The notes below the pieces were generated by a model, which saw only the letters and a list, made by a program, of their open reading frames with translations, searched no databases and had not been told where the DNA came from. Made by a program: the position numbers and the translations under genes. 64,000 bases of DNA, taken from Escherichia coli. GTDB lineage: Bacteria > Pseudomonadota > Gammaproteobacteria > Enterobacterales > Enterobacteriaceae. This document shows positions 7,709 to 8,422 of the stretch, piece by piece; position 1 is the stretch's first letter, and every line of letters begins with the position of its first letter. Location of the stretch: the NCBI RefSeq assembly GCF_003334355.1, contig NZ_QOWP01000003.1; one strand, 5' to 3'.

Positions 7709-8422
7709 TCAGTATTCTGAATTGACGATCACCTCTTCACCAAACGCACCCGCTTGTGGCAAGGGTTTGTAGGTAGAGTTGGAGGCGCGCAGAATGCGGA
7801 TACCACGAGCGCCGATATCGCGTGCGGCGGTAATATCGTTATCGGAATCGCCATAAAAAATTCGGATATTTTTATCCTGCAGCCATTGCGATTTTGTATT
7901 TTGCCCTGGTTTATCGCCCGCAAAGATTACTGGATTCATGTTGGTGGCAGGAATATGAAAATTATCCGCCAGCGTTTTTGAAACCGTTTCTGTTTTCGTC
8001 GGGCTACGACCAGTCACAAAGAAGATCGCGTCACCGCGGCGTACATGCATATCAATCAGCTGGCGAGCGACCTCTTTTGGAATGCTGAATTCATCCCAGC
8101 CATTGTTCATTTTTTCCCAGAACACAGGATTTTTCAGATAATCTTCGCTTTCTGGTGAGAAGGTTTTTTTGCCGCGCCAGAAGCCCGGGCTGGAAAAAAG
8201 TACCGTGTCATCGATATCAAACCCCACCGCCATTGGCGGACGCCCTGCGAGGCTATTTTCAATTTGTGCGACCGAAACTCAATGAATTGGTGCCTGTTCA
8301 GCAAGCCTGGCAACGTTAGTCCCAGGGTTAAGCGGTGAAGGAGATGAGGCCAGGGCAACAGCGGAACTGTTTAGAGCGAACAATAAGCAAACGGCACTGA
8401 TTGCCTGTGTGATCTTGCGCAT
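7709..8422 (-). pseudogene. aphA: Class B acid phosphatase AphA reading frame interrupted by an in-frame TGA at codon 48 (8281..8279); frame otherwise intact
   Basis: Two same-frame ORFs in track (8279..8662 ending ...LAEQAPIH and 7709..8233 [16 protein letters not shown]...); between them cat-tga-gtt-tcg reads H-stop-V-S where AphA has IHWVSV. Confidence 0.7.

Follow-up and report, generated by a model that had tools for sequence, protein, structure and literature searches.

W48*, a probable lineage-inherited nonsense mutation that makes a pseudogene of the acid phosphatase gene aphA in Escherichia coli

AphA is a periplasmic enzyme of the DDDD type that partners UshA during growth on nucleotides (PMC8475336; the DDDD motif is used here as defined in that work). 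The window, a stretch of 64,000 nucleotides of Escherichia coli DNA, carries on its minus strand a 237-codon aphA frame that by translation runs from MRKITQ to VIVNSEY and its stop codon, and that is stopped once internally. This raises the question of whether the strain still makes an active enzyme from this locus, and whether the interruption is an error of sequencing, a codon that is read in some other way or a genuine loss of the gene. The answer that we favor, with a probability of about 0.93, is that aphA is here a unitary pseudogene of the gene encoding the periplasmic class B (DDDD/HAD) acid phosphatase/5'(3')-nucleotidase, and that its W48* lesion was inherited within a lineage.

The identity of the gene was established on a protein in which codon 48 had been set back to Trp. 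This restored protein scored 421.6 bits on TIGR01672 (cut-off 195.8), covering residues 1-237 of this 237-position model, and such a product would be a full-length AphA equivalog. It differed from the mature E. coli AphA of known structure (PDB 1N8N) at only 1 of 212 residues, and the alignment places a Trp at codon 48 of the solved enzyme (IHWVSV). For the 174-aa part of AphA, an assignment to PF03767 is on record. The gene is flanked by tyrB and by yjbQ-yjbR-uvrA, an order that is the same in other E. coli. As for the features expected of the family, the two Asp pairs of the DDDD motif are present in frame, all four residues lying downstream of the stop, and the 25 residues that precede the start of the mature 1N8N chain, comprising the signal peptide, are encoded intact. 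An uninterrupted frame for the full enzyme is what the locus lacks, because of the TGA at codon 48, and for this reason we consider it an aphA pseudogene and not a functional member of the family. The first-pass annotation had placed a TGA at codon 48 of aphA (8279..8281, minus strand) in a frame described as otherwise intact, with its flanking peptide and motif, and had named Trp (IHWVSV) as the residue usual at this codon. Reading and translating the sequence confirmed the stop with its coordinates, flanking peptide and motif, nothing else interrupts the 237 codons, and the Trp agrees both with 1N8N and with the TGG of the intact allele. The coordinates of these features are collected in Table 1, together with the lesions of other E. 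coli aphA alleles that are discussed below.

Table 1. Features of the aphA locus in the window, and lesions of aphA in other E. coli.
Feature	Position in the window	Strand	Basis, remark or carrier
aphA pseudogene	7709..8422	-	237 codons plus natural TGA stop, broken at codon 48; translation, TIGR01672
Nonsense codon TGA (W48*; mature W23)	8279..8281	-	next base G, giving UGA-G
Signal peptide, codons 1-25	8348..8422	-	alignment of the mature 1N8N chain begins at residue 26 of the precursor
AGGGA, Shine-Dalgarno-like, ahead of the native aphA ATG	8428..8432	-	duplex with the 16S 3' end, -5.8 kcal/mol
Residual in-frame ORF Met64-Tyr237, 174 aa	7709..8233	-	whole catalytic core, without signal peptide
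GC-rich hairpin CCGCC AAU GGCGG around the Met64 AUG	8223..8240	-	MFE and centroid folds
First Asp pair, D69 and D71 (FDIDD), precursor numbering	8210..8218	-	downstream of the stop; identical to the solved enzyme
Second Asp pair, D192 and D196 (GDSDND)	7835..7849	-	translation and 1N8N alignment
aphA intrinsic terminator	7681..7703	-	10-bp stem with 7 G-C pairs, then T-rich tail
Lesion Q43* (CAG to TAG)			L011
Lesion, GGG run at codon 34 shortened by 1 nt			L014
Lesion, 1-nt insertion near codon 33-34			L015
Lesion, IS (rve-family transposase) insertion near codon 27			L010, L012, L013, L016
Lesion, foreign junction near codon 38			L017
Lesion, IS1 family transposase, two-piece match spanning 1,779 bp			TUM14664, 102651
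Lesion Q223* (CAA to TAA)	equivalent to 7756		TKEC21-59, NZ_CP092452.1 (L006)

Translation from the native start runs into the stop at codon 48 before it reaches any of the four catalytic Asp residues. The product was given in the first-pass annotation as a peptide of 47 aa; this length fits the precursor, and only about 22 aa would be left after removal of the 25-residue signal peptide, a remnant predicted to be enzymatically inactive. Strains with this allele would consequently be devoid of periplasmic AphA, a loss of activity that we deduce from the sequence. Beyond the stop, the 3' portion of the mRNA that is left untranslated may in addition be destabilised or terminated by Rho. As aphA has a terminator of its own, which stands between this gene and yjbQ (7182..7598), the neighboring genes are probably unaffected and no downstream polarity is expected. 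On the other side of the gene, the AT-rich spacer between aphA and tyrB encodes a 128-aa hypothetical protein (8824..9210, plus strand; WP_001339137.1), which has no Pfam hit on record and is conserved in the relatives examined.

The lesion itself is minimal. Of 714 nt, a single one separates the window from strain 720632, whose allele is intact (WP_001315956.1): G144A, by which TGG becomes TGA; on the plus strand, position 8279 is T in the window and C in relatives. Over a region of 1,001 nt that includes the upstream sequence and the terminator, the window is otherwise as in intact alleles, and many genomes are one base off. A single spontaneous transition, G:C to A:T, appears to be the origin of W48*. 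That secondary lesions are lacking is unremarkable, since a pairwise divergence of ~2 x 10^-4 leads one to expect only ~0.2 more changes in 714 nt. In the list of open reading frames the gene appears as two pieces, one ending at 8279 and the other, of 174 aa, running from Met64 (8233) to the natural stop.

A single-base change that turns up in just 1 of 5,426 complete genomes could in principle be an error of sequencing or assembly, in which case the real codon would be TGG and aphA intact. Against this stands the fact that the TGA is carried by three separately deposited assemblies (LYBG01, QOWP01 and AP027697), representing at least two distinguishable genomes, one of which differs from the window by 14 other SNPs. 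The change is moreover a substitution and not an error in homopolymer length, and 8279 lies outside the GATC and CCWGG methylation motifs. Two more pseudogenes lie in the first 50 kb of the window, both of them frameshifted in one or more near relatives as well (the DUF2713 family gene in five of them, the SopA family gene in strain 21EVA), a recurrence indicating that the assembly is locally of normal quality. Taken together, the three assemblies and the two or more genomes behind them effectively exclude a sequencing error, to which we assign a negligible likelihood.

Two of the carriers are draft contigs, LYBG01000420.1 (GCA_002190165.1) and QOWP01000003.1 (GCA_003334355.1), both reached through an exact-protein look-up of the TyrB variant encoded in the window. 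Over 20,742 bases neither of them differs from the window at any position; both contain the TGA, and neither has a gene call for aphA. These two drafts could be one strain or clone-mates, so that strictly independent support amounts to the drafts on one side and PSS-12 on the other. PSS-12 (NZ_AP027697.1), isolated from human faeces in Puyo, Ecuador, gave the sole 100% match to the 1,001-nt query among the 5,426 complete E. coli genomes. Its aphA (AABK13_RS12705) is annotated by RefSeq/PGAP as a pseudogene with an 'internal stop', and the W48* allele is therefore already known, being flagged as a pseudogene in the public record of that strain. The TyrB variant, A321T, was also considered as a marker of the lineage and was rejected, as it occurs in 215 index blocks and is also found where aphA is intact, in a group of alleles that is unrelated.

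The rarity of the allele was further assessed with a 61-nt query centered on codon 48. By megablast the only exact match was PSS-12, beside 4,371 records that had one mismatch or more; as about 1,055 genomes whose alleles are divergent escaped this search, it was followed by a search in distant mode, in which 5,416 of the 5,426 complete genomes were hit and PSS-12 was again the one exact match. About 1,040 genomes have a divergent allele at the codon-48 stretch. When two representatives of these alleles were given the TGA and used as queries, no exact matches were obtained among complete E. coli genomes. Judging from these searches, W48* is confined, among complete genomes, to PSS-12. The first-pass annotation had called for a comparison with aphA of other E. 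coli, in which a stop at this codon in reference strains would have spoken against an unusual allele; none was found, the 5,425 other complete genomes being without the TGA, nor does any of the three separately deposited assemblies show TGG, which it had named as a second refuting finding if obtained on re-sequencing. It had also left three options for the stop: that the inactivation was very recent, that the base was a sequencing error, or that the allele was specific to the strain. The first is supported by our results, and the second is excluded by the three assemblies that carry the TGA. The third holds in the sense that the allele is rare, with the correction that it belongs to a lineage and not to a single strain, since it is shared with PSS-12.

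The relationship between the window strain and PSS-12 gives the mutation a relative age. Over the 64 kb the two differ by 14 SNPs and by one 98-bp repeat unit, PSS-12 having one fewer; 12 of the differences fall within the first 50 kb. The window is accordingly not PSS-12 itself. Polarisation with near relatives assigned 8 changes to the window lineage and 6 to that of PSS-12, while two positions, 8279 in aphA and 17474, were shared-derived in both. At 8279 all five near relatives have C. An intact 237-codon aphA is present in four of these five nearest relatives, and the fifth, TKEC21-59, has a stop of its own, Q223*. The presence of the TGA in both the window strain and PSS-12, in spite of the 14 SNPs that separate them, implies that the mutation predates their split. 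W48* most likely arose once, in the ancestor that the members of a small E. coli lineage share, and was passed on vertically. An intact orthologue in relatives, a derived lesion and its repetition in separate records are all found for this gene, as is characteristic of a unitary nonsense pseudogene.

Several other observations were made in the window along the way. The substitutions private to the window lineage with respect to PSS-12 and 21EVA are at 2456, 9782, 19539, 20407, 24375, 25108, 38775 and 62326, and seven of these eight are G:C to A:T transitions. Six coding changes were classified, five of them nonsynonymous (tyrB A321T, dinF V187M, ubiA S168N, ubiC V94I and yjbH V495M) and one, at codon 124 of lexA, synonymous. 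This pattern, drawn from a small sample, is consistent with young mutations that have yet to be purged. The repeat unit by which PSS-12 falls short belongs to a tandem array with a 98-bp period (58709..59055; 3.5 copies in the window), located between aceK and aceA and made of GC-rich palindromic units resembling REP/BIME elements.

The two further pseudogenes, both frameshifted, are those of the DUF2713 and SopA family genes (16550..17571 and 25610..27189, respectively). Because the frameshift of the former is shared by five near relatives and that of the latter by 21EVA, both lesions are older than the stop in aphA. Between iclR and aceK (about 55404..56978) lies a gene for a type III effector/toxin of the ShET2/EspL2 family, which is annotated as intact in PSS-12 and is frameshifted in 21EVA. 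Strain 21EVA differs from the window at 11 positions in the first 25 kb, and from the SopA-malM-lamB region onwards, at about 26300..58900, some 324 further mismatches accumulate. This jump past about 26.3 kb suggests a recombination boundary between genomes that are otherwise close relatives.

Even if the stop is real, an active protein might in theory be obtained from the gene by recoding, by readthrough or by a restart of translation. The first of these would be a programmed reading of UGA48 as selenocysteine. The stop is indeed a UGA, and the frame stays open beyond it. However, the 70 nt counted from 3 nt before the UGA fold with -15.3 kcal/mol, as compared with a mean of -18.2 for shuffled sequences (z = +0.98), and no Rfam match was detected in 7500..8900 even at E <= 1. 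There is accordingly no SECIS-like hairpin 3' of UGA48 as judged by these folds and by the Rfam families searched in that interval. At this codon all the other E. coli genomes examined read TGG (Trp), and the solved enzyme likewise carries Trp there. With neither the SECIS hairpin nor the UGA or Cys codons in orthologues that mark a bacterial selenoprotein gene, this candidate was rejected, and we regard selenocysteine insertion as having practically no chance of being correct.

Readthrough by an ordinary tRNA deserves more attention. UGA is the leakiest stop codon, and the values reported for it in K-12 were obtained in strains whose RF2 is a weak variant, a circumstance that weakens their bearing on this allele. 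A few ribosomes may read the UGA with Trp-tRNA(Trp); the insertion of Trp would restore exactly the wild-type residue and might yield traces of native AphA. In reporters of K-12, where Trp-tRNA(Trp) is set against RF2, the readthrough of UGA rose from about 2% at 37 C to 4% at 25 C, and was modulated by cAMP (PMC10570021). It could thus be argued that the allele is a maintained hypomorph that supplies low, condition-dependent amounts of wild-type AphA, an idea to which the lack of a second lesion elsewhere in aphA also lends itself. This lack is nevertheless uninformative, given how few further changes are expected in a gene of this length (~0.2 in 714 nt). The base at +4 is G, and it is an A at this position that has been reported to promote misreading by tRNA(Trp) in E. 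coli (PMC5289835). Furthermore, a premature stop probably opens the mRNA to Rho termination and decay, and we saw no sign of selection keeping the W48* allele. On balance a maintained hypomorph seems improbable. The possibility of some Trp readthrough does mean that W48* may be a very strong hypomorph and not an absolute null.

The third way would be re-initiation at Met64, an in-frame ATG located 15 codons past the stop, to give a 174-aa AphA core that lacks the signal peptide and would act as a cytoplasmic nucleotidase. Ribosomes that terminate can re-initiate close by, the ORF from this codon holds all four catalytic Asp residues, and the stretch Met64-Tyr237 still scores 323.7 bits on positions 64-237 of TIGR01672. 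The pairing of a Shine-Dalgarno-like sequence with the 16S 3' end is weak at this site, however (-3.5 kcal/mol, against -5.8 at the native start), and the AUG is buried in the CCGCC/GGCGG hairpin; from these two features we judge the restart unlikely. The product would also be without mature residues 1-38, which include the N-terminal segment that contributes to tetramer formation, and an unregulated nucleotidase in the cytoplasm would probably be harmful. A functional protein made in this manner is hence very improbable, and the reading that we retain for the locus is that of a pseudogene.

The loss of aphA is not restricted to this lineage. The 174-aa ORF starting at Met64, which gene callers emit from aphA alleles disrupted in their 5' part, was found in 213 contigs, and the lesions seen in other public assemblies range from nonsense codons and single-nucleotide indels to insertion sequences (Table 1). 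The mid-gene position of the IS1 element was confirmed in TUM14664, and 102651 has the same two-piece match. In TKEC21-59 the PGAP annotation gives a shorter AphA of 222 aa and not a pseudogene. As this strain is among the five nearest relatives, two stops in aphA, W48* and Q223*, have arisen in one tight group. It is tempting to see in such recurrence a loss of periplasmic AphA that was repeatedly selected in some gut or environmental lineages, with W48* as one convergent knock-out in which readthrough leaves a tunable trace of enzyme, but we hold this to be unlikely. Inactivation by many independent routes is typical of what is expected for a dispensable periplasmic scavenging enzyme. Since aphA is dispensable, its loss was most likely neutral or nearly so, and W48* is a case of ordinary gene decay.

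The practical consequences are modest. For the window strain and those closely related to it, the appropriate score is AphA-negative, a point that bears on metabolic models and on phenotype predictions for isolates that carry the allele. The loss of AphA could slightly alter the use of periplasmic nucleotides and organic phosphates when UshA is also limiting. The SNP at 8279 offers a handy marker for a small lineage that includes a human faecal isolate from Ecuador. Recurrent knock-out of aphA would be noteworthy only if the convergence exceeded the genome-wide rate of pseudogenes, and beyond bookkeeping W48* has little significance.

The locus can finally be placed among the aphA alleles already on record. 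The other inactivated alleles of E. coli concern the same gene and have the same outcome, and they differ from the window in lesion and lineage, none of them being W48*. In PSS-12, by contrast, the aphA pseudogene is identical to that of the window over the 1,001-nt region, TGA included, and is the same allele by descent. With the known E. coli AphA, a class B non-specific acid phosphatase/phosphotransferase (P0AE22; PDB 1N8N/2B82), the window shares the tyrB/yjbQ locus, and 713 of the 714 nt of its aphA are those of the common intact allele, with the signal peptide, the Asp pairs and the terminator all kept. The known enzyme has TGG at codon 48 whereas the window has TGA, and with this one codon the catalytic domain is left untranslated from the native start.
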